This document shows, one piece after another, positions 3,487 through 46,617 of a stretch of 64,000 bases of DNA. The notes beneath the pieces were generated by a model that made no database searches, was not told where the DNA came from, and was given only the letters and a program-made list of their open reading frames with translations. The DNA comes from an uncultured Clostridia bacterium (GTDB taxonomy: Bacteria; Bacillota; Clostridia; Christensenellales; CAG-917). The stretch's first letter is position 1, and each line of letters starts with the position of its first letter. A program made the position numbers and the translations under genes. Location of the stretch: contig CALVQW010000002.1 in the NCBI GenBank assembly GCA_944358385.1, positions 72,033 to 136,032 on the forward strand. Reading direction: 5' to 3'.

Positions 3487-6696
<3,210 letters not shown>

Positions 6697-9350: not shown

Positions 9351-9470
9351 GTGAGTGACATCGACCGCGCGTGTTTGAGCGACATCGACCGTGCGTTTGA
9401 GCGTCAGCGACAGTGCGATGCGGAAAGTTTAATCGCGCGTTTTAGTGATATCGAACGTGCGATGCGGCAA
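9351..9470 (+). repeat. Degenerate ~22-24-nt tandem repeats related to family M unit core
   Basis: GAGTGACATCGACCGCGCGTGTTT / GAGCGACATCGACCGTGCGTTT / degenerate further copies. The core GCGTrTTTGAGyrAC resembles the family M hairpin units. Confidence 0.65.
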
Positions 9471-11079: not shown

Positions 11080-11106
11080 ACCCGTCATTTTGCGGAGAGG
11101 CGTGAT

Positions 11107-11790
11107 ATGGACGTGAGGAAGGAGCTGGAAAGACTTGCCGACGCGGACTATCGCGTTTTTCATTTACGGCTCATCCCCGGCGTCCCGCCCGAGAGGGTGA
11201 TGGGGGTGCGTATGCCCGCGCTCCGCGCCTTGGCAAAAGGCATGACGGAAGGGGAAAAACGGGCGTTCGTCGCCGCGCTCCCGCATGGGACTTATGATGA
11301 GAACCTCCTGCACTCCGTCATCCTCTGCGGCATAAGGGACTTTGACGAGGCGGAGCGGGAAGTCGCGTGCTTCCTGCCATATGTCGACAATTGGGCGGTG
11401 TGCGACGCGCTCGCGCCCAAAGCCTTCGGCAAAGCGGCGCACTGCGATCGTGTGCGCGAGTTTGCATATGAGTGTACGGGAAGCCCGCACCTTTACACCG
11501 CGCGTTTCGGACTGAATTGTCTTAGGATGTATTTTCTGGACAACGCTTTCACTCCCGACATTTTGGAGAGGGCGGCGGCGGTCTCCGGCAGCTATTATCT
11601 CGATATGGCGGCTGCGTGGTTTTTCTGCGACGCGCTCATAAAGAGGTGGGACGAGACCTTGCCCTACTTCGAGAGGGGAGTTCTTCCGCGCGACGTTCAC
11701 CTCAAAGCCGTGCGCAAATCCGTTGAAAGTTTCCGCGTCCCGGAGGAGCGGAAACACCTTCTGCGCTCCCTTCCCGCGCCTATGAGGTGA
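11107..11790 (+). CDS. DNA alkylation repair protein (AlkD-like HEAT-repeat family)
   Basis: 227 aa. Overall similarity by eye to the 'DNA alkylation repair enzyme' family (LADADYRVFHLRLIPG..., MPALRALAK, NWAVCD). Confidence 0.7.
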   Translation: MDVRKELERLADADYRVFHLRLIPGVPPERVMGVRMPALRALAKGMTEGEKRAFVAALPHGTYDENLLHSVILCGIRDFDEAEREVACFLPYVDNWAVCDALAPKAFGKAAHCDRVREFAYECTGSPHLYTARFGLNCLRMYFLDNAFTPDILERAAAVSGSYYLDMAAAWFFCDALIKRWDETLPYFERGVLPRDVHLKAVRKSVESFRVPEERKHLLRSLPAPMR

Positions 11791-11794
11791 TCCG

Positions 11795-12150
11795 CTTGTT
11801 TCAAGCGACACCGCCATGGAGCGGGTGGGGTACACTTGTGACGCACACTTTGATAGAGCGTATTTGAGTACGACGTCTCTCTTTCGGAGACGTTCTAACG
11901 TACACCCTTTCGAAGATACTAACGAACACTCCGAGCGAGCGTATTTGAGTACGACCTCTCTCTTTCGGATACGGAACTACGCGCCGCAAAGCCAAACTTT
12001 CACCGCGGGCGTTTTGCGCCCGCGCTTGAAAGTCGCGGCAAGTCGGAGTCCCCGCAAACATCACCTACGGTGATTTTGTGGGGTATAATGAGGGGGGGGG
12101 CAATAACTCCCCTGTCAGAGGACGTCGGCTTATTTTACACTCTCCGAGCA
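11795..12150 (+). repeat. Family M repeat copy
   Basis: Contains CTTGTTTCAAGCG, tandem hairpin units, and a 40-nt run identical to the reverse complement of 39729-39768 (11973-12012). Ends with ...AATAACTCCCCTGTCAGAGGACGTCGGCTTATTTTACACTCTCCGAGCAC. Confidence 0.85.
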
Positions 12151-12193
12151 CAACGCACTTTTTTAAGCCGCGGAGGGTTTGAAAAATTTACTA

Positions 12194-13311: not shown

Positions 13312-13343
13312 TCTCCGAACACGATGCACACTTCGAGCAAGTG
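13312..13343 (+). repeat. Isolated family M terminal box
   Basis: TCTCCGAACACGATGCACACTTCGAGCAAGTG compared with TCTCCGAGCACGACGCACACTCCGAGCGGGTG at 137-168: 27 of 32 positions match by eye. Confidence 0.6.
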
Positions 13344-17386: not shown

Positions 17387-20263
17387 ATGCTTAAACTCGT
17401 TGATATAACCAAAGAGTATAAGACGGAAGAGGAGAGCGTGTTCGCTCTCCGCGGCGTGTCCGTGGAGTTCAGAAAGAGCGAATTCGTCTCCATCCTCGGA
17501 CCTTCCGGCTGCGGCAAGACCACACTCCTCAACATCGTGGGCGGCTTGGACCGCTATACGAGCGGCGACATCCAAGTGGACGGCGTCTCCACCACCCGCT
17601 ACCGCGACGAGGATTGGGACACCTACCGCAACCGCAGGATAGGCTTCGTCTTTCAGAGCTACAACCTCATCCCCCATATGAACGTCCTGAAAAACGTCCA
17701 GCTCAGCCTGACGCTCGCTGGCATCTCCAAGGAGGAGGGCAGAGAGCGCGCCATGGAGGCGTTGAGAAAGGTGGGGCTTGAGAAACAGGCGAAAAAGAAA
17801 CCCAACCAGATGTCCGGCGGACAGATGCAGCGCGTCGCCATCGCCCGCGCCCTTGTCAACGATCCCGACATCATCCTCGCGGACGAGCCTACGGGCGCGC
17901 TGGACAGCGAGTCCGGCGTGCAGGTCATGGAACTGCTGAAAGAGGTGGCGCGTGACAGACTTGTCGTCATGGTCACGCACAACGGACAGCTTGCGGAGGA
18001 GTACAGCACCCGCATCATAAATCTTAAGGACGGCGAGATCGTGGGCGACACCATGCCCTATGACTCCGAGGCGGAGGCTGCGGCAGAGGACCTTGCCCGC
18101 ATCTCCGACGCCGTGGACGAAACCGCGCCGACCGCCCCCGAAAGTGCGGAGGAGAACGGCGTTGCGGAAAAGCGTATTTTCACCGAGGAGGGTGTTGAAA
18201 TAGCGGGAACAGACGCATCAACCGCCGTTTTGAGCGAGAACGGGCAGGAGGGCGAGACCTCTTCTTCTCCCGCCGCTCCCGCAAAGAAGCGCAACATCTT
18301 CAAGAGGATAGGGGACAGGATCCGCGCCTTCCGCAAGCGCGAGAAGTCCTATATGTCCGTTGCGACGGCGGTCAATCTTTCCTGGACCAACCTGCTCAGC
18401 AAGAAGGGGCGCACTCTGCTCACTTCCATTGCGGGCAGCATCGGCATCATCGGCATCGTGGTCGTCCTCGCCCTCTCCAACGGCGTGGGCGCGTACATCG
18501 CGGGGCTTGAAGAAAACGCTCTCTCGCAATATCCCATCACCATCAACGAGCAGGATATGAGCCTCAGCGCGCTCATGGAAAAGGTCATGGGCGCGACGAA
18601 CACCAATCCGGAATATCCCGACAGCGGGGAGATCGTCGTGGGCAACATGCTCGGCAATCTCATCCACAACAAGGACGCCATCTTCGGCACGAATGATCTG
18701 AAGAGCATACGCAACTACATCGAGACGAACAAGTCCCAGTTGGATGGCGTAGGCGTCGTTAAATATCAATACGGGATAGACATGAACATATTCGCCGACG
18801 CAGGCAACGGTGGCGACGAATATATGAAGATATATCCTTTTACGGACCTCATGGGAGATGTCCTGGATGATTTCCAGAATGCCATCGATCTCGTGCTTGC
18901 TCCGGGAGCGACCGAGCAGATCAAGCAGTTTGCCGCGAGCACCGCGCAGACATGGGACGAGATGTCTCCCGACACCCATTTGCTCGAGCAACAATATGAA
19001 CTGGTCGGCGAAAATTCGCGTTGGCCGCAGAACGACCGCGAAGTGGTGATCGTGGTCGATGAATACAACCAGATCCCCGATTTCACGTTGTTCATGCTCG
19101 GCTTGCGTTCCACAAGCGAGTTGCTCGGGATCTTGACGGGCGGAGGCTCACTGTATGAACCGATAGACATTGATACGCAGGTCATCGGAAAAGAGTATTA
19201 CATCCTGACCAATGCCGATTATTATTATCAGACGGACAGCGGCGTTGATTATTATCCGCAGAACATGTTGGACAAGGAGACGATCGATTCCGCCGATCCT
19301 ATCAAGGTCACCGTTTCCGGTGTCATACGCCCCAGGCGCAGCGTGAGCGTGACATCCATCAACGGCGTCGTCGGCTATCGCTCCGGTCTCATGGATCTGC
19401 TCATGGATAAGGCGGAGTCGAGTGACATCGTCGAGGCGCAGCTCGACGCATTCAATGCGGCGAACCCCGATGTCACCGCTGAGGATCTCGAAAAAGACCC
19501 TTCTCTTTTCAAGCCGTACAACTCGGTCGCGGGCTTCAACGAAGATGACGATCATAAAGATCCTAATTTCTCGCTCAGCTACACATATCTTGACGGCAAG
19601 AAAACAGTGAGTGAAACTATAACCAGGCTTGCGCGCGGTACGCTGATCAAATCATACGACATGCACATCGAGGTCATGCGCGCGCTCGGCATAGCGGACA
19701 AGAGTACGCCGCAGTCCATAAAGATATATCCGACGTCTTTTGACAATAAAGCCGTGATCGAAGAATTTTTGAGCGGCTATGGCAAAGAGACGGGAGACAA
19801 CATCAAATATACCGATCAGCTCGCCATCATGATGAACTTCGTGGAACAGATGAGCAGTACGGTCACGCAGGTGCTTGTCGGCTTTGCCGCCATCTCCCTC
19901 ATCGTGTCCACCATCATGATCGCAATCATCATCTATACATCCGTGCTGGAACGGAGAAAGGAGATCGGCGTGCTGCGCTCCCTCGGCGCAAGAAAGAAGG
20001 ACATCTCGCGCGTGTTCATTGCCGAGTCCGCCATTCTGGGCGCGTACTCCGGCTTGATAGGCATCATAGTCGCCGTCGCCATCTCGTTCGCGGGCAGCGC
20101 CATCCTCGCCGCCGTCCTCGGCATATCCGGGCTTATGCAGGTGAGTTGGTGGCAGTGCGTCGTCATGTTCCTCATCAGCATATTGCTCTCGGTGCTTGCG
20201 GGCTTCATACCTTCCCGCATAGCCTCCAAGAAGGATCCCACCGTCGCCCTCCGCAGCGAGTGA
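17387..20263 (+). CDS. Fused ABC transporter ATP-binding protein / FtsX-family permease (paralog of 3487..6696)
   Basis: 958 aa with the same architecture as 3487..6696. The ATPase domains are very similar by eye ([44 protein letters not shown]), and the C-terminal FtsX motif [13 protein letters not shown] is present. AAGGAGA RBS. Confidence 0.9.
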
Positions 20264-21000: not shown

Positions 21001-21322
21001 GGGCACTATTCGGCGAATAACTGCGTCAGAGCCGCGTCCCCGACCGCTTACGTACGAGAAGTACGCCGCGCGCCCGGGAGACGCGGCTCTTCCTTGTTCT
21101 TCATCCGAATATTGCCCTCAGACAAGTCTGACGCGCTCGGGGTCCCCGCGGGAAAAATCTTAGATTTTTCTCGTGGGGTAGATCGGCGCAGAACTTTGTC
21201 AGCACCCCTTTTTCGGCTCGTTACGTACGCCTAAGTACGCGCCTCACCGAAAAAGGGGTGCTTTCGCGTTCTGCATCCAAATATCGCGCTCAGACCTTCG
21301 GGCACTATTCGGCGAATAACAT
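21001..21322 (+). repeat. Family H hairpin repeats (two full units bracketed by a 21-nt direct repeat)
   Basis: GGGCACTATTCGGCGAATAAC occurs at 21001-21021 and 21300-21320. Unit hairpins are at 21028-21090 and 21201-21262. The conserved flank CTTGTTCTTCATCCGAATATTG at 21093-21114 is identical to 28097-28118. Confidence 0.85.
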
Positions 21323-21423
21323 CGTCAAAGCCTCCAGTTCCTAATTGTTCATAAGCGGTTTCCCCGCCGATACTCGGCGGGGAAAATAGTCCGCCGAACG
21401 GTGTTCGGCGGGTTATCAAGTGA

Positions 21424-21501
21424 TTAAGGCGCGGGGCGGGAAACCGCTCCGCGCGTGTTTGTTATAGAAACCCCCCGGACTATCCGGGGGGTTTCTATAA
21501 C
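21424..21501. repeat. Two consecutive long hairpins (11-bp and 18-bp stems)
   Basis: GCGCGGGGCGG-GAAA-CCGCTCCGCGC at about 21428-21456, homologous to 28340-28365. GTTATAGAAACCCCCCGG-ACTAT-CCGGGGGGTTTCTATAAC at 21461-21501 has a perfect 18-bp stem. Confidence 0.8.
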
Positions 21502-21529
21502 AAAAAACCGCCGGGGTGCGGCGGTTTTT
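21502..21529. terminator. Bidirectional terminator at galT 3-prime end
   Basis: AAAAAACCGCCG-GGGTG-CGGCGGTTTTTG. Confidence 0.7.
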
Positions 21530-25555: not shown

Positions 25556-26994
25556 TCTCGCCTCTTTCCGGTGAACGCAACCTTACCATGCTCACCGACC
25601 TCTATCAGCTCACGATGGCGAACGGCTATCTCCAAAAGGGAGTGAGCGAGAAAAGGGCAGTGTTCGACCTCTTCTACCGCGGCAGCGGCGGCTATTCCTA
25701 CGCCGTGGCGGCGGGACTCGAACAGGCGGTGCAGTATCTTAAAGACCTGCGCTTTGAGGAGAAGGACATCGAATATCTGAGGTCTCTCGGCATCTTTCCC
25801 GAGAATTTCCTCGAAAGGCTGAGATCCTTCCGCTTCACGGGAGACCTCAAAGCCATACCCGAGGGGACGATCGTCTTTCCTTCCGAACCCATACTCACGG
25901 TGTCCGCGCCCGTCTTTGAGGCGCAGATCATAGAGACCGCGCTCCTCACCATCGTCAATCACCAGACGCTCATCGCCACCACGGCGGCGAGGCTCGCCGC
26001 CTGCACGGACGCGAAGATATTGGAGTTCGGGCTGCGCCGTGCGCAAGGTCCGGATGCGGGCACTTACGGCGCGCGTGCCGCGTACATCGGCGGCTGCCGT
26101 TCCACCTCCAACGTGCTTGCGGGAGAGATGTTCGGCATCGCGGTGGCGGGCACGCATTCCCACAGCTGGGTGATGACCTTCCCCACCGAACTCGAAGCCT
26201 TCGAGGCGTATGCGGAGATCTATCCCGACAACTGTCTCCTGCTCGTGGACACCTACGACACTCTGAAAAGCGGCGTCCCCAACGCGATAAAGGTGTTCGA
26301 CCGTCTCAAAGCGGAGGGACACAAGCCCGTGGGCATCAGGCTGGACAGCGGAGACCTTGCCTATCTCAGCCGCGAGGCGCGCAGGATGCTGGATGCGGCG
26401 GGACACGCGGACTGCAAGATCTTCGCCTCCAACGACATCGACGAGCAAGTGTTGCTCGCGCTCAATTCGCAGGACGCCAAGATCGACGTTTACGGCATAG
26501 GCACCAAGCTCATCACCAGCTTCTCCAACGCCTCTCTCGGCGGAGTGTACAAGCTCTGCGCCGTGGAGGAGGACGGGAAGCTCGTGCCCAAGATCAAGGT
26601 GTCGGACAGCCACGACAAGACCACCGATCCCGGCGTCAAAAAGACGGTGCGCATCTATCGCGGCGGCATGGCGGCGGCAGACCTCATCTGCCTTGCGGAC
26701 GAGAGCATAGACACCTCCCGTCCCCTCACCGTGTTCCACCCCGAACAGACGTGGAAGCGCACCACTTTCAAGGATTTCACCGTGAAGGAATTGCCTGTGG
26801 ATGTCATAAAAGACGGGGAACTCGTCTACGACCTGCCCACCCTAGAGGAGATCGGCAGACATCACGACGAGTCCAAGGCGGAGTTTTTCCCGGAATACAA
26901 GCGCGTGGTCAACACGCAGTACTACAAGGTGGACCTCAGCCAAAAACTGTGGGATCTCAAACAGGAGCTGCTAGCCGAAAGAGCGCAGAACTGA
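25552..26994 (+). CDS. pncB: Nicotinate phosphoribosyltransferase
   Basis: Start MISPLSG at 25552 (AAGGAGA RBS; ATGA overlap with the lgt stop). LTDLYQLTMANGY N-terminus and GTHSHSWVM motif. Confidence 0.9.
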   Translation: MISPLSGERNLTMLTDLYQLTMANGYLQKGVSEKRAVFDLFYRGSGGYSYAVAAGLEQAVQYLKDLRFEEKDIEYLRSLGIFPENFLERLRSFRFTGDLKAIPEGTIVFPSEPILTVSAPVFEAQIIETALLTIVNHQTLIATTAARLAACTDAKILEFGLRRAQGPDAGTYGARAAYIGGCRSTSNVLAGEMFGIAVAGTHSHSWVMTFPTELEAFEAYAEIYPDNCLLLVDTYDTLKSGVPNAIKVFDRLKAEGHKPVGIRLDSGDLAYLSREARRMLDAAGHADCKIFASNDIDEQVLLALNSQDAKIDVYGIGTKLITSFSNASLGGVYKLCAVEEDGKLVPKIKVSDSHDKTTDPGVKKTVRIYRGGMAAADLICLADESIDTSRPLTVFHPEQTWKRTTFKDFTVKELPVDVIKDGELVYDLPTLEEIGRHHDESKAEFFPEYKRVVNTQYYKVDLSQKLWDLKQELLAERAQN

Positions 26995-27010
26995 CGCTGT
27001 CAAAGCCAAG

Positions 27011-27037
27011 CCCCGCGGAAGTCTCCGCGGGGTTTTT
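27011..27037 (+). terminator. Intrinsic terminator after pncB
   Basis: CCCCGCGGA-AGTC-TCCGCGGGG followed by TTTTT. Confidence 0.8.
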
Positions 27038-27305
27038 GTATGCGCGATTTCCGTTTTCACCGTGTTTTCTGTGTTCAGCCCGCTTGACGTTCCCGTCTCG
27101 TACCTTCATCCGCACACGGTGCGGTGCGACGGCTCGGCATTCCCGTCCTCTTTCCGCCCGCTTGTTCGTTTCGGGGCGGGGCGGTCGGACTTTCGGCAAA
27201 ATTCGTCCCGATCCGGCGCAGTCGGCGCATTTTCACGCGCGCGGGCAGGATATAATGTTTGTCCGACGGGCGGCGCGTGAGGCGCGCCCGAAAAGAGGAG
27301 ACCGT

Positions 27306-28004
27306 ATGAGAAAAAGGAACAAGATCCCGCCCCGCTTCGCCGTCACGAGGAGGGGCTACGACATCCCGTCGGTGGAGGCGTACATCGAGTCGGAGCGCGA
27401 AAAGGCGGACAAGGCGGGGCTGGAACAGAAGGAACGCATCCGCGCCCTTCAAGCCAGGTGCGACGCGCTCTCCGAGGAGCTTGATGTCTACCGCGGCAAG
27501 GAGGAGCAGATCAAATCCGCGCTCATGGCGGCGGGCGAACAGGCGGAGAAAAAGGAACTCGACATCAAATTGCGCTATGCCACCGAGCTTGAAAGGCTCA
27601 AACTTTTCCGCGCCAAGTGGACGAATGCCTACGAGGAACTCAAAGAGAGATACTCCTTCGGCAAGGACGCGCTCAATATGGAAAGCGTCGCGGTCTCCGT
27701 CAAGCTGGAGCTGGAAAAATTCCTCGCCGGCAGTTTTTCGCTGGACAAGAAGGGCGCGGAGGACGAAACTGAACTCGCGTTCAAAGAGGAGACGGCGCGT
27801 CTTTCGGAGGAGGACGAGAGCAAGGTGCGGGAGCTGAGAGAAAAGCTCTTGCAAGCGGCGGAACGCAAGGACAGAGAAGCCGCCCTCACCGCCAAAAAGA
27901 GCAAGACGGAGAGCAGCGCGCAGCCTGCCGCCGCGTTTTCCCTGGAAGAGGCGGCGAATCCTACGGAGAGTTTGGCGGAGATTTGTCGATACCTCGGACT
28001 CTGA
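27306..28004 (+). CDS. DivIVA domain-containing protein
   Basis: 233 aa from ATG 27306 (AGAGGAG RBS). N-terminal DivIVA motif F..TRRGYDIPSVEAYI, followed by long coiled-coil sequence. The upstream part of ORF 26751..28004 is not coding. Confidence 0.8.
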   Translation: MRKRNKIPPRFAVTRRGYDIPSVEAYIESEREKADKAGLEQKERIRALQARCDALSEELDVYRGKEEQIKSALMAAGEQAEKKELDIKLRYATELERLKLFRAKWTNAYEELKERYSFGKDALNMESVAVSVKLELEKFLAGSFSLDKKGAEDETELAFKEETARLSEEDESKVRELREKLLQAAERKDREAALTAKKSKTESSAQPAAAFSLEEAANPTESLAEICRYLGL

Positions 28005-28023: not shown

Positions 28024-28190
28024 TACTGCGTCAAAGCCCCCGTCGTGGATGCTCACGTACGCCAATGTACGCTCCGCCTCCCGGCAGGGGCTTTTTCTTG
28101 TTCTTCATCCGAATATTGTCCTCAGCGTATACGTAAAAAAACGGGGTGCTTTTGCGCTCTGCAGCCGAATATCGGCGTCAGGCTTGTAAA
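28024..28190 (+). repeat. Family H hairpin repeats (one full unit + one 3-prime half unit)
   Basis: ACTGCGTCAAAGCCCC...ACGTACGCCAATGTACGC...GGGGCTTT followed by the conserved flank. The half unit at 28127-28190 matches the 3-prime half of the 21201-21297 unit. Confidence 0.8.
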
Positions 28191-28221: not shown

Positions 28222-28296
28222 GAAAATTTAACAATTGGGGACGGGGCAAAAATGTTAAGAAAATTTAACAATTTTGCCCCGTCCCCAATTGTTAAA
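28222..28296. repeat. Perfect 25-bp inverted repeat with embedded 15-nt direct repeat
   Basis: TTTAACAATTGGGGACGGGGCAAAA (28227-28251) pairs with TTTTGCCCCGTCCCCAATTGTTAAA (28272-28296), with a 20-nt spacer. GAAAATTTAACAATT occurs at 28222-28236 and again at 28259-28273. Confidence 0.9.
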
Positions 28297-28384
28297 TCGC
28301 GGTGTTTATCGAGTGTCGGCGGAGGGTGTAACAACTAAGGCGCAGAGCGGGAGACCGCTCTGCGCGTGTGTTTATTATGTAGTT

Positions 28385-28945
28385 TCCGTCGTTGTCAAGG
28401 GCGCGAAAATTTTTGCTCGCTTTGCAAGCAAAATTTTTCAGCGCAATTCCTTGACAAAATATGGTAATGGTGCAACTCCGGCTTGTTTCAAGCGGTGCTG
28501 CCATTTCGGAGACGGTCAACGCACACTCCGAGCGGGTGCGCCTGAGCACGACGTCTTTCTTTCGGAGACGGTTTAACGTACACTTTGATAGAGCGTGCTT
28601 GAACACGACGTCTCTCTTTCGGAGACGGAATCGGAGCCGCAGGGCGGCGACTATCTGAGTGCCGAGGGCTAACGCATACCTAAGTAGGGGTAGCACTAGT
28701 GCGCGAGTGCCGAATTCCTCCTCCCGTGCCGGGTATTCGGTGAGTGCAGTCATCCGCTTAGTTATGTGAGTGCGAGATATAAAATCTTGTAGAGATGTTC
28801 AGTTAGTCCCGCAAGATGCGAGGAGTGGACTCCAATCGGCACGGGGGAGGAAAGCCCGAAGGGAAGGAGGGGGTTTCTAACTCCCCTGTCAGAGGACGTC
28901 GGCTTATTTTACACTCTCCGAGTACGCCGTGAACTTTGAGCGAGT
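28385..28945 (+). repeat. Family M repeat, most complete copy
   Basis: All modules are present. A 30-nt run (28387-28416) and a 26-nt run (28751-28776) are exact matches to the reverse complement of copy 39335-40130. A 59-nt run is an exact match to copy 1-180. Confidence 0.9.
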
Positions 28946-29329
28946 GTTTTCGAACAGGGCGAATAATTGCACTTATATGGGGTTTAAATGTGTGTTTATG
29001 GCAGTTAAAGTGCGGGATGTGCGGGGTGTCAGTCGTCGCTTTGGTCGGAAGGATCGCGTTCGTATTCGTCGGCGGCGGCTGAGGAGAGCAGTGCGCCGTA
29101 TCTGCGTTTGCGGGCGAATGCGGCGGAGACGGAGGGCGGGAGAGGAGTGTAAGCGGTGTGAAAACCGGGAGCAGTGAGAGGAGCGGGGATAGAGGGTGAT
29201 AGAGGAAGGGAGCGGAGAGAGGGGAGAGCGGGCAAGGCGCGCGGGAGGCACGCGGAAGTGCGCGGGCGGCTTTCGGTGAAGTGCGGTGAACGGAGCGGGC
29301 AAGGCGCGGAGAAAGTGCGGGCGGATATG

Positions 29330-29355
29330 AAAAGGGCACGGCGTGTGCCGTGCCC
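29330..29355 (-). terminator. Intrinsic terminator after lipoprotein gene 29375..30379
   Basis: Minus strand: GGGCACGGC-ACAC-GCCGTGCCC followed by TTTTC. Confidence 0.75.
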
Positions 29356-29374
29356 GTTGTCGCAAATGCTGCGG

Positions 29375-30379
29375 TCAGTCCTCGCCCTCGATGAGGGAGA
29401 TGCCGGTGAGGCTGTAAGTCACCGTCTGCGCGTTGCCGTCCGCGTCGTTGTAGGGTTCGACAAAACCGACCAGCACGTGAGGGAGAGACCACATCTTGCC
29501 GTTGTCGTAGGTGGAGAGCAGGGTGGTCGTGCCGTCGTCGCTCTTCGCGGCATAGACGGGGTTGACGGTGTAAAGATAGGTCTGCGACGCGCCCGACACG
29601 GTGGTCGCTCTGCCGAGGGTGGCGCGGTAGCATTCCAGCGTAGTGGTGGCGTTGTTCACCTCATTGCCGTCCCCGTCCTTACCCGCGGATGCGAAGGGGA
29701 GATCCCCGACGCTCGCCGTGCCACCCACCGAGAAGGTGAGGGAAGCGGACACCTGTTCCGTCGCGTTCACCACGGGGGTGGTGAAGGAGAAGGAGAGGGA
29801 GGAGGAGAAGGTGGACACGCCGCGCAGGCTCTGTGCAAACTGGTTGTTGTCGTAATAGACCGAGCCAAGCCCGATGCTGCCTTTCTTCTCGCCGTCCGCC
29901 GTTTTGAGGGTGTAGGAGAGGTTGTTGCCGCTGTAAGTGCCGTTCATGCACAGCACTTCGTCGCCGTCCACGGTCTCGCGCCTGAAAGTGGCGACGGGGA
30001 GAAGATAGTTCCTGCCGTCGGTGAGGGCGAAGTAGCATTCCATGAAATAGAGGATGCGTTTGCCGTCCAGGGTGGCGTCGAGTTTGCTGCTGATGAGGTA
30101 GCCCTCGCGCTGCTCGAAGTAAGTGTCGCCCACCCTCACCTTGTCGGGATTGGACACCGAGTTGTAAGCCGCGTAATAGGACACCTCGCACACATACTCG
30201 CCTTCCACGCCTTCCTGCGCGCTGTCGTCCACGCTGTAAGTGTAGCATTCATAGGGACGCCCCTCTTTCCAGGCGTCCACCAGCTGTCCCTGCGTAGTGG
30301 CGTTGTTGCAGGCGGCGAAGGTCACCGCGAGCACCGCTACCACGACGATGAGTGTGATGAAAGAAACTGTCTTTTTCAT
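29375..30379 (-). CDS. Hypothetical lipoprotein
   Basis: 334 aa. Signal peptide plus lipobox MKKTVSFITLIVVVAVLAVTFAAC. The mature part is Asn/Thr/Ser/Tyr-rich and beta-like, with no family recognised. An intrinsic terminator follows. The overlapping + strand frame (part of ORF 29174..33892) has Gly/Glu-rich shadow-ORF composition. Confidence 0.75.
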   Translation of the reverse strand: MKKTVSFITLIVVVAVLAVTFAACNNATTQGQLVDAWKEGRPYECYTYSVDDSAQEGVEGEYVCEVSYYAAYNSVSNPDKVRVGDTYFEQREGYLISSKLDATLDGKRILYFMECYFALTDGRNYLLPVATFRRETVDGDEVLCMNGTYSGNNLSYTLKTADGEKKGSIGLGSVYYDNNQFAQSLRGVSTFSSSLSFSFTTPVVNATEQVSASLTFSVGGTASVGDLPFASAGKDGDGNEVNNATTTLECYRATLGRATTVSGASQTYLYTVNPVYAAKSDDGTTTLLSTYDNGKMWSLPHVLVGFVEPYNDADGNAQTVTYSLTGISLIEGED

Positions 30380-30623
30380 AGCACAATGATTATAACCGAA
30401 ATGCGCGCGCTAAGCAACGGATTTTCCCAAACAGCGAAAATTAGGGGGAAGATCCCGCCCTTTCCGCCTCTTTCCCGCCGTGTTTTCGTGGATACGCCGC
30501 GTTTGCGGCGGAGCGGGGACGGCACGCGCTCCGCTCGTCGGGTTACGCTTTTATCATTTGCGGGCGGAGCGAGTCCGCGCCCTTGCCGTGATGAGTTGCT
30601 TTGCCTGCGGGAAAGATATGTCC

Positions 30624-30652
30624 TTGAAAAGGTGCATTGCGCGTGTTATACT
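30624..30652 (+). promoter_or_regulatory. Promoter of addBA; predicted leaderless transcript
   Basis: TTGAAA (30624-30629), 17 nt spacer, TGtTATACT (30644-30652). The ATG at 30659 follows after only 6 nt, and there is no Shine-Dalgarno sequence. Confidence 0.6.
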
Positions 30653-30658
30653 GCATCT

Positions 30659-33600
30659 ATGAAAATAATCTATTCCAATACGGCGCACGATGCTTACCAC
30701 CGCGTGCTTGCCGAACTCAGGAGCAGGCTCGGAGAGGGCGGAGAACACGTCGTCATAGTCCCCGACAAGTTCACCGCGTCCTCGGAGAGGGGGATCATCG
30801 CCACTCTCGGAGAGGAGGCTCTTTTCAATGTCAGAGTGACTTCCTTCACCCGCCTTGCGGAAAAGACGGTGGGCAGACGCATCAAAAAGTGTCTCACGCC
30901 GCAAGGCTCCGTCATGCTGCTCGCAAAGGTGATAGAGGAGAACCGCGGCAGACTGACCTACTATGCCAAAGCCGCTCGCTCGGCGGGATTTGCGGAGGAG
31001 TTTTATGCCGCGCTCACTTCCGTGCGCAACAGCGGTCTCACCCCGGAAAGTCTGCGCACCGCCGCCCTCCGCGCCCCCTCCAACATCAAGGGGAAACTGA
31101 CGGACATGGCGTTGATCTATGAGTGCTACATAGCCGCTCTCGGAGACAGACACAGCGATTCCACCACCCGTCTGGAAGCATTCGCCGCGCTGCTCGCCGA
31201 GGGCGAACCCGTCCCCGCGCATTTCTATGTGGTGGATTTTTACGATTTCAAGTCTCCGGAACTCGACATTTTGTGCGGGCTTGCCAAGTCCGCGCTCTCT
31301 CTCACCGTCGGTATGGTGGGCGGCAAGGGCAATCCCAACGAGAGGATATATTGCGACGGCGCGGCACAGAGGTTGCTCACCGCTTGCGGAGGAGGGGAGG
31401 AGAGACATTACCGCGAGACGCTGCATCCCGCGCTGGACGCCATCTCCCGCACCCTGTTCTCCTACGAGCTGCCCGAGGAGCGGGTGGAGAACGGGGGCAA
31501 AGTGCGGCTGATCTCCGCCAAGTCGCGCACAGAGGAAATAGAGTTCCTCGCCCGCGAGATCGTCACCAAAGTCGCGGACGGCGCGCGTTACCGCGATTTC
31601 GAGGTGGTGCTGTCCGACGTCGAGGGCTACAAGGCGGAGGTGAAGAGCGTCTTTTTGCGCTACGGCATCCCATTCTTCATCGACACCCGCGAGCTGCTCT
31701 CGGAGCAGACCAAGACCAGGTGTATGCTCGCCGCGCTCGCCGCGGCAAGGAGCGGGCTGCGCAGGCAGGAAGTGACGGAGTTCATCAAGAATCCGCTGTT
31801 CGCGGGCGGCTTTGCGGAGAGCGAGGACGAGGTGTTCCGCTTTGAGAACTACTGCCTGCGTTACAACATCTCCTACGGCAGATTTCTTGAGCCTTTCACA
31901 CTCGGCGACGAGGAGGAGAGGACGCGCGCCGAGAAGGTGCGCAAAGGGCTGCAAAGCGCGCTCTCGCCCTTCCTTTTCAAGGGGGAGACGGGGACGGAGG
32001 ACTTCGTCTCCCGCACGGAAAAATTCCTCGCGTCATTGGAGACCGCGTGGCAGGCGCATGTGGCGAAACTCACCGAAACCAGCCTTTATTACGCAAAATG
32101 TGCCGATCAAGTGGACGAAAAGATAAGATCGCTGCTTGACGAGATGAGCGAGACGCTTGTGGGGAAGGGGGATGTCGCCTACTTCGAACGCATGCTGAAA
32201 GCGACGGTGGGCACGGTGAAGATCGCCCTCGTCCCCACCTGGCTGGACGCGGTGTATGTCGGCGGCACGGACAACCGCTATCTCGGCGGCGGGGACATCT
32301 ACATCCTCGGCGCGAACGTGGGCAAGCTCCCCAAGGGCGCGGACGGCGGCACCGTCATTTCCGCCCGCGACGAGGAGGTGCTTGCGGGGCTGGACATCCC
32401 CGTCTCTCCCACCGTCATACAGCGCGGCTACTCCGAGATGATGTCCGTCACCGAGATAATGAAGCGTCCCAAGGGCACTCTCACGGTGTGTTATCCCCTC
32501 GGCGATCCTTCGGGCGAACTCAGGCAGTCCGTGGTGGTCTCCGAGTTGAAGGGGATACTCTCCGAGGGTGGCGAACCTCTCGCGGTGCAAAGTGCGTCGG
32601 ACATCCTTTACTCGCAGCTTGGGGGAGAGGGACGCGCCCGCGCGCTTTCCGCGCTGTTCGCCACTCCGAAGGCGTGCATGCACGAGGTGTTGAAGCACCT
32701 CACCTCCCCCCTTCCCGACGGGCTATCGGAGGCGGCGGCAAAGTGTGTGGGAGACCGTGATGCCGTGAGGTTGAAGAGACTGCGCGAGCGCAGGAAACCC
32801 GTCGCAAAGCTCGACTCCGACGCGGCGCGCGCCGCGGAGAAGGCGTCGGGCGGGCGCATCAGTCCCAGCCGCTTGGAGAGCTATTTCTCATGCGGCTATA
32901 TGCAATATTTCTCCTACATCCTCCGTCTCAGACGCCGAGAGGAAGCCGCGCCGCGCAGCACGGATTACGGCACCATCCTGCACGGCGTCCTGGAAAAGTT
33001 CTTCCGCGTCTATATGGAGAGGGGAGTGGACGAGAAGGAAGTGCGTCCTCTTGCCGAAAAGTTCTTTGAGGAGTGCATAGCCGAAAACGTCGCAGTCTCC
33101 GCGTCCGCGGACGAGCCTCAGACCGCAAGGGTGCTGGTGAGGCTGAAAGAGGAGGCGGTCAAGGTGTGTTCCGCTCTGCGCGTGGAGGCGGAACGCTCCT
33201 CCTACAAGCCCGTATATGTCGAGCAGTACATCGGCGGAGAGGAGATCCCCGCGCTCAAAGTGGACATCGGTGACGGAGAGGTGGAGCTGAGGGGCAGGAT
33301 AGACCGCGTGGACGCCTTGGACGACAAGTTCTTCGTGGTGGACTACAAGACATACAAGGGCGCGAAATTCAAGCTTGCCGAGATCTATTCCGGCATGAAG
33401 ATCCAGCTCTATCTCTATCTCGCCGCCATACGCGAGGCGAAGGGTTGGCGTCCCGTGGGCGCGTTTTATCTGCCCGTGTCCTTCGATTTTTCTTCGGAGG
33501 ATTGGAGCTTGCGCTACCGCGGCAACATGACGGACGACCTTGCGGAGGCAAAGCTGATCGCACCCGATTTCGGCGAGCCGACCGCCCACTTCGCCGCCCC

Positions 33601-33892
33601 GGACGCAAGGGGAGCCATGAAGGAGCCGAACTTCTTTTCGGATGATGCGTTCCGTGCCGTTACGGCGTATGTCAAGCGACTTGCCGAGGAGGGCGCGAAA
33701 GGGATCGCGGAAGGGCGCGTCGATGCTCTCCCCCTCAAAGACGTGTGCGACAGATGCGACTATCGGGACATCTGTGTATGGAAGGGGAGCCGCTGTCTTT
33801 CGGCGAGCGGCAGGATCATGGTGAAGGACTTTGCAAGCGGCGGTGCGCCGCGCAGCAAACTGAACTATGCTGCGGATGAGGAGGATGTGTGA
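30659..33892 (+). CDS. addB: ATP-dependent helicase/deoxyribonuclease subunit B (AddB/RexB)
   Basis: 1077 aa from ATG 30659. C-terminal RecB-type nuclease with an iron-sulfur cluster cysteine set (YFSCGYMQYF ... CDRCDYRDIC). GRIDRVD and DYKT nuclease motifs. Immediately upstream of, and overlapping, addA. Confidence 0.9.
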   Translation: MKIIYSNTAHDAYHRVLAELRSRLGEGGEHVVIVPDKFTASSERGIIATLGEEALFNVRVTSFTRLAEKTVGRRIKKCLTPQGSVMLLAKVIEENRGRLTYYAKAARSAGFAEEFYAALTSVRNSGLTPESLRTAALRAPSNIKGKLTDMALIYECYIAALGDRHSDSTTRLEAFAALLAEGEPVPAHFYVVDFYDFKSPELDILCGLAKSALSLTVGMVGGKGNPNERIYCDGAAQRLLTACGGGEERHYRETLHPALDAISRTLFSYELPEERVENGGKVRLISAKSRTEEIEFLAREIVTKVADGARYRDFEVVLSDVEGYKAEVKSVFLRYGIPFFIDTRELLSEQTKTRCMLAALAAARSGLRRQEVTEFIKNPLFAGGFAESEDEVFRFENYCLRYNISYGRFLEPFTLGDEEERTRAEKVRKGLQSALSPFLFKGETGTEDFVSRTEKFLASLETAWQAHVAKLTETSLYYAKCADQVDEKIRSLLDEMSETLVGKGDVAYFERMLKATVGTVKIALVPTWLDAVYVGGTDNRYLGGGDIYILGANVGKLPKGADGGTVISARDEEVLAGLDIPVSPTVIQRGYSEMMSVTEIMKRPKGTLTVCYPLGDPSGELRQSVVVSELKGILSEGGEPLAVQSASDILYSQLGGEGRARALSALFATPKACMHEVLKHLTSPLPDGLSEAAAKCVGDRDAVRLKRLRERRKPVAKLDSDAARAAEKASGGRISPSRLESYFSCGYMQYFSYILRLRRREEAAPRSTDYGTILHGVLEKFFRVYMERGVDEKEVRPLAEKFFEECIAENVAVSASADEPQTARVLVRLKEEAVKVCSALRVEAERSSYKPVYVEQYIGGEEIPALKVDIGDGEVELRGRIDRVDALDDKFFVVDYKTYKGAKFKLAEIYSGMKIQLYLYLAAIREAKGWRPVGAFYLPVSFDFSSEDWSLRYRGNMTDDLAEAKLIAPDFGEPTAHFAAPDARGAMKEPNFFSDDAFRAVTAYVKRLAEEGAKGIAEGRVDALPLKDVCDRCDYRDICVWKGSRCLSASGRIMVKDFASGGAPRSKLNYAADEEDV

Positions 33893-39334: not shown

Positions 39335-40130
39335 CCTCTTGCTCGGAGTGTGCGGCGGGTTTAAGCGCACTCTATCAAAGTTCACGTCGTGTTCGGAGAG
39401 TGTAAAACGGGCTGACGTACACTGACAGGGGAGTTATTGTCCCCCTCCTCCCCTACGGGACTCCTCCCCCACTCGGAATAGAGTTCTCTCCTCCTAAAAT
39501 GCGGTACTAACTTTTTCATAAAGGCGCAAACCGCGCCTTTATGAAAACACCTCTTAAAAAAAGTTTGAGTCTCGCACTCACATAACTAAGCGGATGCCGG
39601 TACTTATTGAGCGTCGCTCGTGGGGCGAGGAGGGCGACTCGACGCGCACGAGCGACGTCTCTACTTAATTTTCCGTCTAGCTTGCGAGGTCGCAGATTCG
39701 CGCCGCGACTTTCAAGCGCGGGCGCAAGACGCCCGCGGTGAAAGTTTGGCTTTGCGGCGCGTAGTTCCGTCTCCGAAAGAGAGACGTCGTGTTCAAGCGC
39801 GCCCGCTCTCGGTGTACGTAAAGCATCTCCGAATAAGTGACGTTAGAACGTCTCCAAAAGAGTGTGCGTCGTACTCAAAGACGCTTCGAATAAGTGTACG
39901 TCACAAGTGTTCCCCGCCCACCCACCCCATAAGCGAACATCTCTACACCGGCAGGAGTTGCGCCCTTATCGGATTTTGTCAAGGAATCGCGCTTTACGAT
40001 GGTGATACACCCTCGCGCTCCCTCACTATAGCTTTGTTTCTTCCTTTCATCTTTTTTGTCAAGGAATCGCGTCGAAAAAATTTGCAAGGCAGAGCCGGCA
40101 AAAATTTTCGCGCCCTTGACAACGACGACA
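39335..40130 (-). repeat. Family M repeat, inverted copy (with internal duplication of the TTCCTTGACAAAA module)
   Basis: The reverse complement shows the same module order as 28385-28945 and 11795-12150. GCGCGATTCCTTGACAAAA is present twice. Confidence 0.9.
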
Positions 40131-40519
40131 AGTTAAAATTTAAAAACTGCGGACGGCACTTCTTGCCGTCCGCCTTAATTACAAAACAATGCTCGGCTTT
40201 ACGCGCTTGCGTGCCTTGCCGCCTCTTTTGTCAATACTAGCTCTTTTGTGCGCTCTCGTCCCCGATCATCTCATTTATCCGCTTGTTGACGTTCACAATT
40301 TGCCCCCTTAGATAAGGGGGCGAACGGTGCTTATAGCTTTATATCTTGCTTGTGGGGGTATGAGGAGTTTTCGGGTTGCAAGGGGCGGACTCGGAAAACA
40401 GCCCCTTGCCGTTTTCGCTTCCTTTTGCGTCCAAAAGGAAGGCTACATTCCTCGCCGCTTGAATAAATAAAGGCGTGTGTTCAGGCACGTCTCCGAAGGG
40501 GAGCGTTGAAGTTTTGCGT

Positions 40520-40553: not shown

Positions 40554-41513
40554 TCATTTGAGGAAACGTTTTTTCCAGAGCACGATGCCGGCGACGAGGC
40601 AGACCACGACGGAGATGCCGATGACCACCCAGAAGCCCCAGCTCTCGCCTTCGAATGGGACTCCCGTATTCATGCCCCAGAACGCGCCTATCATGCTGGG
40701 GATGGCGACGAGCAGGGTGAGGGAAGTCAGCACTTTCATGACGACGTTGAGGTTGTTGGAGATGATGGAGGCGTAGGCGTCCATGGTGCCGGAGAGGATG
40801 TCGCGGTAGATGTTGGACATTTCTATTGCCTGTTTGTTCTCGATGACGACGTCCTCCCACAGATCCTCGTCCTCCTCGAAGAGCTTGGTCATCTTGGGGA
40901 GCTTGTCCAGCACCACGCTGTTGGAGCGCAGGGAAGTGGAGATGTAGACGAGGGATTTTTCGAGGTCGAGCATCTCGATGAGTTCCGCATTCTTCATGGA
41001 TTTTTCCAACACGTTCTGCACGCGCTGGCTGGCGCGGTCGATCTGTTTGAGGTAATGCACGAACTTTTTGGAGATGGTGTATTGCAGCTGTATGAGGAAA
41101 CGGGTGCGCTTGTGCAGGTTGAAGTCCTTGACAAAGCGCGCCGAGAGCATGTCGTCGATGAGGCTGGTCTCTTCGAGGCAGACGGTGATCATCACGTCGG
41201 GGGTGGAGATGAAGCCGAAGGGGAGGGTGGTGTAGGTGTAATGGTCCTCATCCTCCTCGGTGAAGGGGATGTCCGTGACCACGAGGAGGGCACCGGTGTC
41301 GTCGTCGCGTTCGATACGCGCGCGTTCTTCCTCGTCCAGAGCGGCTTTGATCATGTCCTCGGGGACGCCTGCGGAACGCGAAATAAGCTCGATCTCCTTG
41401 TCCGTGGGGTTGGACATATGGATCCAGTGGTCGCGGAAGTCGTAGCTCTCGCCTATGAGAGCGTTGTCGACGGTGATAGTGGCTTTGTTGAGTTTCTTGT
41501 AAACCTGAAGCAT
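40554..41513 (-). CDS. corA: Magnesium/cobalt transporter CorA family
   Basis: 319 aa from ATG 41513 (GGAGGA RBS 6 nt upstream; the ORF track begins at GTG 41534). Signature GMN motif (FWGMNTGVPF) between two C-terminal TM helices. Confidence 0.9.
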   Translation of the reverse strand: MLQVYKKLNKATITVDNALIGESYDFRDHWIHMSNPTDKEIELISRSAGVPEDMIKAALDEEERARIERDDDTGALLVVTDIPFTEEDEDHYTYTTLPFGFISTPDVMITVCLEETSLIDDMLSARFVKDFNLHKRTRFLIQLQYTISKKFVHYLKQIDRASQRVQNVLEKSMKNAELIEMLDLEKSLVYISTSLRSNSVVLDKLPKMTKLFEEDEDLWEDVVIENKQAIEMSNIYRDILSGTMDAYASIISNNLNVVMKVLTSLTLLVAIPSMIGAFWGMNTGVPFEGESWGFWVVIGISVVVCLVAGIVLWKKRFLK

Positions 41514-41758
41514 ATCGTTTCCTCCGGTGGGCACATAAACGCCGTGCCGGAGAAAACTCTGACACGAGCAAATTATTGGAGACTATGGCAACTTCGGTAG
41601 TCGGAGTCCATTTTGCACCTCTGTTTTTTCGTCCCTAACATCTTAGCAAAAAAAAATTGCTAAGGCAACCGAAATTCGCTTGCCCGAAAATTCTTTTTTT
41701 GCTAAACTCTCTATGATTAAAACAAAAAGCAATTTTAGCATCATACAGGAGGTCTCAA

Positions 41759-44374
<2,616 letters not shown>

Positions 44375-44404
<30 letters not shown>

Positions 44405-44500
44405 TTGCGAGAGATAGCACAAAAGATAAAAAGCCCGCGGCAACGCGGGCTTTAAGTTTGCCTGTGCTGCCGCGAAAAGAAACCGCCGAGCGAAAATGAG
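44375..44500 (+). repeat. 126-bp direct repeat, copy 1 (last 30 nt of ppdK + terminator + downstream)
   Basis: Identical to 44655-44780 except for one C/T difference (AAAAATCCCCGC versus AAAAATTCCCGC). The offset is 280 bp. Confidence 0.9.
44433..44459 (+). terminator. Intrinsic terminator after ppdK (second identical copy at 44713..44739)
   Basis: GCCCGCG-GCAA-CGCGGGC followed by TTTAAGTTT. Confidence 0.65.
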
Positions 44501-44654
44501 CGACACCGCGATAGTTTCGGAGCAGAGCGGAGAAACGAGGAGCAGGGGGAGCGTCTTGCATTTTCGGGAGGCGAAGAGGAGGGGCAGACGAGGAAGCAGT
44601 ATGCCTACACCGATGTGAAGGCATCGGCGCACGGCGTCTTGCCCCGACGAAGCG

Positions 44655-44780
44655 CAGGCAAACATCAAAAATTCCCGCAAGTAATTGCGAGAGATAGCAC
44701 AAAAGATAAAAAGCCCGCGGCAACGCGGGCTTTAAGTTTGCCTGTGCTGCCGCGAAAAGAAACCGCCGAGCGAAAATGAG
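44655..44780 (+). repeat. 126-bp direct repeat, copy 2 (orphan ppdK 3-prime end + terminator)
   Basis: See copy 1. Upstream of 44655 the sequence is no longer ppdK-like. Confidence 0.9.
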
Positions 44781-46031: not shown

Positions 46032-46065
46032 CAAATAATACATTTTTATAATATGTGAGATAATG

Positions 46066-46236
46066 CAAATGAGAATATAGCACGCTTTATGATGGGATCA
46101 TCGCGCGCTAAGTTCGTGACTTTGAGTTGTCCACCAGCATAGCAAAAGGGACGGTCAATACCGTCCCTTCATTTGTTATATGAGAACATTCTGCTTTGAG
46201 AGTGACATCGGATCATTGGTCGGTGGAGACAACAAG
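46066..46236 (+). repeat. Duplicated unit: decayed tRNA-3-prime-like segment + hairpin + 15-nt tRNA-Val 3-prime-end fragment
   Basis: 46103-46169 matches 46465-46531, differing mainly in the hairpin loop. GGTGGAGACAACAAG at 46222-46236 is identical to 46542-46556 inside tRNA-Val. Confidence 0.8.
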
Positions 46237-46427
46237 TCATTCGCCGCAATGGGCGGAGGGCGTGAGAAGTAGAGTGCGTTTGCGACGAGGTGTACATTCC
46301 CGTTCGGTGGGACGTAGGGCGGCGAAAGCGTCTTGCAAACGGTGAAGATGCCTATTTTGGAGGAGGCGTCGGCAAGCCGCCGAACTTGCGCGCACGGGGC
46401 ATATGGCACGCTTCATATGCGCGCGAA

Positions 46428-46540
46428 TGGAAATGAGAACACATCACGCGTATATGGTAGGTTTGCGCGCTAAGTTCGTGACTTTGAGTTGTCCACCAGC
46501 ATAGCAAAAGGGACGGTACACGCCGTCCCTTTTGCTATGC
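46428..46540 (+). repeat. Second copy of the decayed tRNA-like segment + long hairpin abutting tRNA-Val
   Basis: GCGCGCTAAGTTCGTGACTTTGAGTTGTCCACCA followed by AGCATAGCAAAAGGGACGG-loop-CCGTCCCTTTTGCTATGCT. The hairpin also serves as the tRNA-Val terminator on the minus strand. Confidence 0.8.

Positions 46541-46617
<77 letters not shown>

Follow-up and report, generated by a model that had tools for sequence, protein, structure and literature searches.

Mosaic intergenic repeats, among them BOX, BIME and ERIC, were recognised decades ago; why they are so conserved, and by what means they move, is still unsettled. REPs, which are linked to RAYT transposases, are imperfect palindromes of ~35 nt with a conserved GTAG-type tetranucleotide at the 5' end. 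BOX elements are modular, with internal modules that vary in number; in S. suis they include extra large modules, large copies yield spurious coding sequences, and some copies form co-transcribed 3' extensions of ~600 bp (PMC3049150). Here we describe family M, a set of intergenic repeats found in a 64-kb stretch of DNA from an uncultured Clostridia bacterium (contig CALVQW010000002.1; the whole stretch is called the window) and in its relatives. Family M is non-coding, encodes no enzyme of its own and, although new as a family, is of a well-known kind. Its pattern matches that of known mosaic repeats, and we therefore file it with them; on this analogy, it may well consist of lineage-specific mosaic interspersed repeats of the same kind as BOX and BIMEs. 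An earlier reading of the window (the original prediction) had proposed a non-coding, modular, hairpin-rich family with no recognisable relatives. The family is genuine and has no relative in Rfam, in scans both at gathering thresholds and by E-value; as a kind, however, mosaic repeats of the BOX/BIME type are recognisable relatives.

Family M is an informative case in that it is large and modular, belongs to an uncultured Clostridia clade, and can be compared across orthologous sites that are filled, empty or part-filled. Its value lies in one clear recombinant, a core that changes more slowly than silent sites, and a long-range helix that is kept. The repeats also break metagenome assemblies of the clade and create dozens of spurious 'hypothetical proteins' in public protein sets.

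Family M in the window and in related genomes

Copies of family M duplicate to new intergenic sites, recombine, and gain or lose modules in place. The window contains four composite copies (A, B, C and D), defined by self-BLASTN together with a module-by-module map, both of which bear out the conserved module order that had been predicted. Copies A and C are 91.5% identical over 530 nt, and C is 93% identical to E, a partial copy just outside the window; B and D are 84% identical over 219 nt, with 98.5% over the 66 nt of a variable hairpin. The young duplicates A and B occupy sites that are empty in sister species. Judging from its sequence, copy A is a recombinant in which a D-type upstream module (93% over 128 nt) is joined to a C-type body. 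The flanks of the copies are mutually unrelated. Each module boundary examined has a box, and breakpoints appear to fall at such short box repeats (~14-30 nt; YTGARYACGACG and ACACTYYGAGC), which would bound every module.

Relatives of the window were reached via an RlmL-like protein and AddA. The nearest genome in the species collection, the metagenome-assembled genome L003 (RlmL-like, 78%), holds copy F at a site unlike that of any window copy. The contig of L016 (AddA, 70%) begins inside copy G, at the C-orthologous position, and G shares with C the unique flank GGGGTTTAA..TTAAGTGCGGGA. L018 (AddA, 68%) has just P1, one hairpin and a 3' tail at its C-orthologous site, and its other contig end breaks off in box units at the D-orthologous site, so that both sites are also occupied, with different module content, in species whose AddA is ~70% identical. 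L017 (AddA, 63%) has nothing at either site. The C site, filled in the window and in L016, is thus reduced in L018 and empty in L017; in P0245 too it has P1 only, and this deletion variant, as read from a translated open reading frame (ORF), would have its first and last boxes joined. In these close relatives (L018, P0245), the C site can do without the core. Sites A and B are both unoccupied in L003, L006, L007, L009 and L013/14, and L012 (83%) has box-like units at the B site. No copy was found across 15-19 kb of synteny in L006, L007 and L009 (RlmL-like, 76-79%), and a core profile run with nhmmer against the relatives' loci L006-L018 detected no further copy.

At copies A and B, three assemblies made independently from other samples match the window with 100% identity over 5-12 kb. 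Two of the three end inside copies (L001 at 11885, L005 within copy A), as is expected of genomic repeats. Contig L004 prolongs the window 9.6 kb leftward; it completes copy A, which measures ~980 nt in all (remainder at L004 ~13140 to 12160, minus strand), and adds copy E at the contig end.

Further copies were sought in protein collections, with the stop-free antisense translation of copy C as the query. The matches amount to 31 clusters (90% identity) and 33 representatives (50% identity); every one derives from a metagenome assembly, and no Pfam domain is present in any of them. Since none is identical to a window copy (tblastn), the matches are further copies, and at least 33 further distinct copies are thus present as spurious ORFs. 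They include A-site and C-site orthologues with altered module content (P0262, P0264 and P0267 at the A site, P0245 at the C site) and an extra 111-nt insert module. More divergent members consist mainly of a terminator-like hairpin and P1, with arrays of small hairpin modules; this pair is the most widespread of the module pairs, and the antisense peptide IINTRAERSPAPRLNC...FCQGIAPKNF occurs in ~10 divergent clusters. Dozens of public 'hypothetical proteins' (P0241-P0289) are spurious antisense ORFs inside family M repeats, among which the peptides MTALTEYPAREEEFGTRA and IINTRAERSPAPRLNC recur.

As copies are known from DNA beyond the window, from three further species and from over 30 other metagenome contigs, the family is neither confined to the window nor a simple segmental duplication of one locus, as had been anticipated, and the insertions and deletions at orthologous sites accord with the suggestion that it behaves as a non-autonomous element. 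A scan of 185,579 species genomes with AACTCCCCTGTCAGNNNACGTCNGC, which covers this exact motif only, gave no matches; L003, which is in the scanned collection, carries a copy whose sequence differs at this motif. A motif scan of metagenomes gave a single chance match, inside a glycosyltransferase gene, scans of viral contigs with three motifs gave none, and BLASTN against phages and plasmids found nothing.

Copies sit after gene 3' ends or between convergent genes. Of the six whose upstream gene is known, five share the orientation of that gene. Copy B starts with CTTGTTTCAAGCG directly after the stop codon of a DNA-alkylation-repair gene, copy C lies between convergent genes (26751-28004 on the plus strand and a minus-strand gene cluster), and copy D adjoins corA (40554-41534, minus strand) downstream, just past that gene's own terminator (40547-40529), with homology to copy A that probably reaches ~40520. 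The elements have a GC content of ~57%, the window ~59%, and the genes of the window are those of a Gram-positive-type anaerobe (Gram-positive-type AddAB, MacB-like ABC transporters, CorA and a P-type ATPase). The stretch from 41 to 64 kb has no family M copy.

Of the seven loci originally proposed, the four composites, a fragment (placed at 3281-3430, now 3312-3429) and a solo 3' box stand, although the copies proved larger than stated, at up to ~1.1 kb. The remaining locus, 9351-9470, was undetected by BLASTN and nhmmer and is a separate 22-24-nt tandem repeat in 2.9 copies (TRF) that is only loosely box-like. A solo terminator-like hairpin module and the ~340-nt upstream module U had been overlooked, as had the nature of TTCCTTGACAAA as the 3' arm of a hairpin. 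The small modules of the fragment are also found in the P1 tip of copy A and in copy D (40001-40022). All four exact shared strings that had been noticed are present, namely a 59-mer at 46 and 28824 and, each time in reverse complement, a 30-mer at 28387 and 40098, a 40-mer at 11973 and 39729, and a 26-mer at 28752 (formerly given as 28751) and 39570. For exact repeats of 26-59 nt in 64 kb, a chance origin is impossible.

Module anatomy

From 5' to 3', the modules are an optional module U, a terminator-like hairpin, hairpin P1, CTTGTTTCAAGCG, tandem 57-nt units, a core of 300-380 nt and 3' box repeats; an optional variable hairpin occurs in some copies between the 57-nt units and the core. Module U is 76% identical between A and D overall and 93% over its first 128 nt, contains a compensating A..T pair insertion in an AGGGGC/GCCCCT stem and, in copy D, ends 3' in the terminator-like hairpin (40173-40149), of which copy C also has one. 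Because U is shared by A and D, copy D extends to ~1.1 kb. Across copies, the terminator-like GC hairpin has 10-11 bp.

P1 is a hairpin of ~25 bp (5' arm TTGTCAAGGGCGCGAAAATTTTTGC and 3' arm GCAAAATTTTTCAGCGCAATTCCTTGACAA in copy C), with dG -31 to -34 and z about -5.5 across copies. Its tip takes added small hairpin modules, amounting to ~100 nt in A and to a duplication in D. The 'TTGACA box' TTCCTTGACAAA is the 3' arm of P1 and is complementary to TTGTCAAGG. Its TTGACA had been suggested as a transcript start; as a promoter it is rejected, being part of a hairpin arm with no -10 element, and no sigma-70-like promoter was found on the element strand of copies C and D in a search for sigma-70-type sites. 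The 5' arm ACGTCGTTGTCAAGGGCGC is an inverted copy (16/19) of the box GCGCGCTTGAACACGACGT, which lies ~280-310 nt downstream in A and D; its partner is thus a box inside the element and not the terminal module at the 3' end.

The 57-nt units number one to three per element, and copies A/C, B, D and F differ in this respect. A unit consists of a box, ACGYACAC / TYYGAKAGAGCG / YGCYTGARCACGACG (also given as YTGARCACGACG), followed by the hairpin CGTCTCT-CTTTC-GGAGACG. Both the units and the variable hairpin fold locally. Outside the elements, neither the 8-mer CGCTTGAA nor the pattern of box part 1 showed useful enrichment.

Fold and constraint of the core

A consensus fold of cores A, C, D, E, F and G (RNAalifold) contains 51 pairs on the element strand and 27 on the complement. 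Its main feature is a long-range helix in which a pyrimidine tract (Py1) pairs with a purine tract (Pu1) 100-137 nt away. The helix comprises 12-17 bp and one bulge in all five complete cores, from four lineages, with dG of -24 to -35 kcal/mol (16 bp and one bulge in copy C, dG -34), and the minimum-energy folds computed for A, C and G each recover it independently. It is 96.6% paired, with compensatory changes from U-A to C-G and from G-C to A-U to G-U. For the structure as named, 87.8% of cells pair, as against 39-57% with the partners slid; double changes occur at six pairs, in nine cells, and a count of nine cells was not reached in any of 500 shuffles. Among ~23 further copies, the antisense translation of Py1 shows a single amino-acid polymorphism (E/A), which corresponds to the bulged base. 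In D and F the variable hairpin folds to an identical bracket shape from differing sequences (z -3.2 and -3.5), and G keeps the architecture too, again with a different sequence. A stretch of 26 nt is invariant between subfamilies. Pairing of purine tract 2 with CTCCCCT is weakly supported.

These results have to be read with the composition of the helix and the sampling in mind: 10 bp of Py1:Pu1 are low-complexity purine/pyrimidine sequence, and the covariation draws on about four independent lineages. An unbiased count of G-T versus A-C mismatches showed no strand asymmetry (15 vs 17), in a weak test that skips hairpins with short loops, and z-scores of single sequences do not favour the sense strand (-5.9 vs -7.8). 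The evidence for a fold is thus compatible with RNA or with single-stranded DNA, of either strand. The elaborate fold predicted for the core could mean a cellular RNA function.

Table 1. Family M copies, pieces and modules located in the window
Feature	Position	Strand	Remarks
Copy A, 3' part only	1-184	+	Truncated by window start; self-BLASTN, module map
Copy B	11794-12158	+	Truncated D-type with internal deletion; self-BLASTN, module map
Copy C ('fullest' copy of the original prediction)	28333-28953	+	Self-BLASTN, module map
Copy D	39341-40466	-	~1.1 kb; self-BLASTN, module map
Fragment	3312-3429	+	Part of P1 3' arm and two small hairpin modules
P1 3' arm part of fragment	3312-3334	+	Module map
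Small hairpin module GGGGGTGTGGGGGTATAATACCCCC of fragment	3366-3393	+	Module map
Hairpin module GCGAGGGTGTAACACCCTCGC of fragment	3397-3429	+	Module map
Solo 3' box CTCCGAACACGATGCACACTTCGAGCA	13312-13338	+	89% over 27 nt, E = 0.003
Solo terminator-like hairpin module TTAAGGCGCGGGGCGGGAAACCGCTCCGCGCGTG	21423-21457	+	35/35 match to module of copy A
Upstream module U, copy D	40128-40466	-	Hairpin-rich, common to copy A; overlooked earlier
Terminator-like GC hairpin, copy C 5' side	28340-28365	+	11 bp; dG -25.5, z -6.9
Hairpin P1, copy C	28392-28457	+	dG -31.5, z -5.8
Tandem 57-nt units, copy C	28504-28628	+	2.2 copies; self-BLASTN, TRF
Core, copy C	28601-28903	+	303 nt; homologous to cores of A, D, E, F (L003) and G (L016)
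Variable hairpin, copy D	39673-39770	-	Within CGCGCCGC/GCGGCGCG stem
Py1 pyrimidine tract TTCCTCCTCCCGTGCCG, copy C	28715-28731	+	5' strand of long-range helix
Pu1 purine tract CGGCACGGGGGAGGAA, copy C	28837-28852	+	3' strand of long-range helix
CCC-GAA-GGG mini-hairpin, then purine tract 2 (AGGGGG)	28855-28887	+	Tentative partner CTCCCCT
Py1 CTCCTCGCCCCAC, copy D	39620-39632	-	Long-range helix
Pu1 GTGGGGGAGGAG, copy D	39461-39472	-	12 bp and one bulge, dG -24

Known families, enzymes and coding capacity

At gathering thresholds, Rfam 15 finds only a tRNA in the window (46544-46617), and scans of copies C, D and A by E-value (to E 10) gave chance-level matches far below threshold. No covariance model of OLE, GOLLD, ROOL, raiA, HEARO, group I or II introns, ribozymes or riboswitches matched, and a literature search with the purine-tract sequence found no paper. 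The predicted lack of a transposase, of terminal inverted repeats and of a conserved ORF stands after ORF scans and a self reverse-complement BLAST. None of the 30 window ORFs scanned is a transposase (NCBIfam or Pfam), and no transposase, HUH, RAYT or other mobility gene was found in the 64 kb, the 9.6-kb extension or the relatives' loci. No ORF is conserved in the elements: indels are out of frame and come in compensating pairs in hairpin arms. The antisense strand has stop-free stretches of 156-209 aa, but their frames differ between subfamilies, and a coding element was rejected.

Several further candidates were considered and set aside. An independent small-RNA gene with its own promoter and terminator does not fit, the terminator-like hairpin being at the 5' side and not at the 3' end. 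A group IIC intron gave no match to Intron_gpII or group-II-D1D4 at E to 10, and the terminator-like hairpin belongs to the repeat itself, which bears on the insertion of such introns after terminators. For an array like ToxI of type III toxin-antitoxin systems, no ORF follows the units, and the downstream genes are convergent or unrelated. A miniature inverted-repeat transposable element (MITE) fits poorly, as six copies have no terminal inverted repeats and the A and B sites, in a weak test on diverged flanks, show no duplicated flank. The mirror tract, of which Pu1 of copy C is the first half, needs no purine-motif triple helix, as this half has an upstream Watson-Crick partner. The likeness of GAGGAAAGCCCG to the RNase P motif GAGGAAAGUCC was judged coincidental; no RNase P model matched, and the motif is absent from copy D.

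Neighbouring features

A second, unrelated family of intergenic repeats occurs at 21020-21121 and 28025-28125 (77% over 105 nt) and at 21001-21033 and 21300-21332. It has the form CTGCGTCARAGCC...hairpin...CTTGTTCTTCATCCGAATATTGYCCTCAG, lies directly after gene 3' ends and includes a terminator at 28076-28091. Long near-perfect palindromes are found at 28226-28297, 21458-21504 and 41643-41705 and in L016 (~11100-11370). The GGGGACGGGGC-armed palindrome beside copy C recurs at the D-orthologous site of L016 and is thus another type of repeat module. A cluster of GCGCATATGCGC-type palindromes (181-400) lies downstream of the P-type ATPase gene; in relatives (L003, 1990-2200; L007, 17700-18000) the type of motif is kept, not its sequence. 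A 29-nt tandem repeat, GCGCTTTTGTCGGTTTGCGGTGCGGCGC, occurs in 2.5 copies at 50950-51018.

The site of copy A appears to be an insertion hot spot: in L006 (645-1822) it holds two extra genes, of 294 aa (with a faint GIY-YIG match) and 90 aa. Elsewhere in L006 (5400-5860), a tandem repeat of ~185 nt in the 3' flank of macB contains the terminator hairpin of that gene and represents a different expansion of the same intergenic site. In the window, paralogous fused MacB-like ABC transporters (ATPase and FtsX permease) are encoded at 3487-6696 (minus strand) and 17387-20263 (plus strand), and the two genes are 74-88% identical in DNA over parts. The AddB ORF (29174-33892, 1572 aa) is over-long, AddB of relatives having ~1080-1100 aa; in relatives, a minus-strand gene of ~330 aa (29375-30379 in the window) and a VanZ-like gene lie between the repeat and addB. 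A low-GC stretch at 44-48 kb (0.50-0.53) may be an integrated element. It contains a 130-nt direct repeat (44371-44500 and 44651-44780, 98.5% identical), and repeats at 46051-46169, 46415-46531 and 46508-46566 flank the only tRNA of the window, which is on the minus strand; the ORFs of the stretch have no Pfam matches.

Discussion

We suggest that family M might be maintained and reshuffled in the manner of other mosaic repeats. If breakpoints indeed fall at boxes, reshuffling would run through the boxes, by recombination or slippage or through a box-recognising enzyme encoded elsewhere. Read-through from a neighbouring gene would turn the element into a compactly folded RNA tail with a possible effect on transcript ends, and selection on the fold, or on the requirements of copying, would keep the core conserved. 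Several points weigh against this explanation. Good terminators precede copies A, C and D, which also have a terminator-like hairpin of their own ahead of the core, and read-through transcription is therefore not assured. The long-range helix with its compensatory changes exceeds the simple stem-loops of REP, ERIC and Correia elements, and the core is 75-82% identical between species, as against 47-53% for the four-fold sites of addA and of the rlmL-like gene (window vs L016 or L003; 61% vs L018). The box breakpoints are drawn from few cases, one of which (P0245) is a translated ORF only. In addition, inverted repeats are internal and not terminal in the self reverse-complement BLAST of six copies, and no target-site duplication was seen when filled and empty sites of A and B were compared, a weak test given the diverged flanks.

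The properties of the core would also be expected of a new multi-copy large structured non-coding RNA. On this account the core, possibly with P1 and the 57-nt units, would be a ribonucleoprotein scaffold, decoy or ribozyme, transcribed from the element strand, and the repeat-like behaviour would be secondary. We regard this as possible, though on balance unlikely. It would account for the helix kept through compensatory changes in five copies from four lineages and for the polymorphism of Py1 at a bulged base, for the constant architecture and differing sequence of the variable hairpin in D, F and G, for the slow divergence relative to four-fold sites and the invariant 26-nt stretch, for a copy kept at the orthologous C site where AddA is 70% identical, and for the excess of sense pairs in the consensus fold. 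However, the element strand has neither a sigma-70-type promoter nor a clear 3' terminator, the core lies behind terminators, and copy orientation is mixed; moreover, the core is dispensable at the C site and absent from relatives whose RlmL-like identity reaches 79% and whose synteny extends over 15-19 kb. The symmetric mismatch counts, the sense-strand z-scores, the low complexity of much of the key helix and the few lineages behind the covariation also argue against it. That the core is a new class of large structured RNA and, at the same time, one module of a self-propagating mosaic element seems to us less likely again, and the features proposed for such an RNA, namely the stem that closes the variable hairpin, the Py1:Pu1 pairing, a CCC-GNA-GGG mini-hairpin and the invariant 26-nt segment, are put forward with the same reserve. 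If the core were a functional RNA, it would be a multi-copy, mobile addition to the few large bacterial RNAs.

Insertions at sites that are empty in sister species, together with the young subfamilies A, C and E at 91-93% identity, would equally suit a classical non-autonomous transposon (MITE-like, or hairpin-dependent in the way of IS200/IS605 or REP/RAYT elements), moved in trans by an enzyme that is encoded elsewhere and recognises box repeats or hairpins in single-stranded DNA. The inverted match between the P1 5' arm and a box in A and D, the multiple direct box copies, which resemble arrays of transposase-binding sites, and a conserved structure that shows no strand asymmetry and would suit single-stranded DNA no less than RNA, point the same way. 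We nevertheless think a transposon of this sort improbable: the inverted match lies inside the element and not at its ends, the junctions of A and B show no target-site duplication, elements of up to 1.1 kb and ~57% GC are unlike typical MITEs, no candidate enzyme gene was found in the DNA searched, and extensive module turnover in place is atypical of cut-and-paste or peel-and-paste elements. It would be tempting to see in the copies a terminator or insulator hairpin cassette, or a binding-site array for a nucleoid or repair protein, as the terminator-like hairpin and P1 are the most widespread pair, the position after gene 3' ends or between convergent genes is suitable, the hairpin of copy C scores as a terminator on both strands, and SPRITE repeats of pneumococci have been interpreted as terminators that were co-opted (PMC3049150). 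Yet upstream genes have their own terminators (28076-28091; 40547-40529), a 300-nt core and its long-range helix are more than termination needs, the box motif shows no enrichment beyond the elements and the sites are dispensable in relatives, which leaves such a role with only a slim chance. Finally, an assembly chimera or a segmental duplication of a single locus within the window, for which the metagenomic origin of the assembly is the one argument, is refuted by the identical independent assemblies across A and B, by the copies in other species and contigs, and by the unrelated flanks.

Mosaic repeats of the BOX and BIME kind thus remain the explanation that we favour, and the comparison with described families places family M among them by behaviour. 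OLE, GOLLD, ROOL and the raiA motif share with it a size range, multi-helix folds with long-range pairing and an origin in anaerobic Firmicutes, but these RNAs have one or few copies per genome and recognisable transcription signals; family M, in contrast, has many copies, module turnover, no promoter that was found and no covariance-model match. ERIC, Correia (CREE) and RUP elements are likewise interspersed and non-coding, show insertion polymorphism between strains, and form stable RNA hairpins that can alter transcript processing. They are, however, single units of 100-160 bp with terminal inverted repeats, and Correia elements have a TA target duplication, whereas family M shows neither terminal inverted repeats nor a target duplication and is modular and far larger. 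BIMEs and REPs of enterobacteria and pseudomonads come closer, being mosaics of linkers and palindromic units, the units occurring solo and in composites, in many copies, after gene 3' ends and between convergent genes; family M differs in that a GTAG-type tetranucleotide and RAYT were not seen and that its modules are longer and more diverse.

The closest analogue is BOX (boxA-boxBn-boxC, with boxD/E/F in S. suis), which family M resembles in the way it works; the likeness proposed is one of behaviour, not membership of the BOX family. Both belong to Gram-positive hosts, are non-coding and intergenic, and combine a fixed module order with a variable number of tandem internal modules. Both reach 600 bp or more, fold tightly as single strands and give rise to spurious ORFs, and both encode no enzyme and leave no clear target duplication; some BOX copies extend operons at the 3' end (PMC3049150). 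Family M departs from BOX in its unrelated, GC-rich host and in copies of up to 1.1 kb that include a unique core of 300-380 nt with a long-range helix, a terminator-like module, an upstream module of ~340 nt and a hairpin whose tip takes nested small modules.

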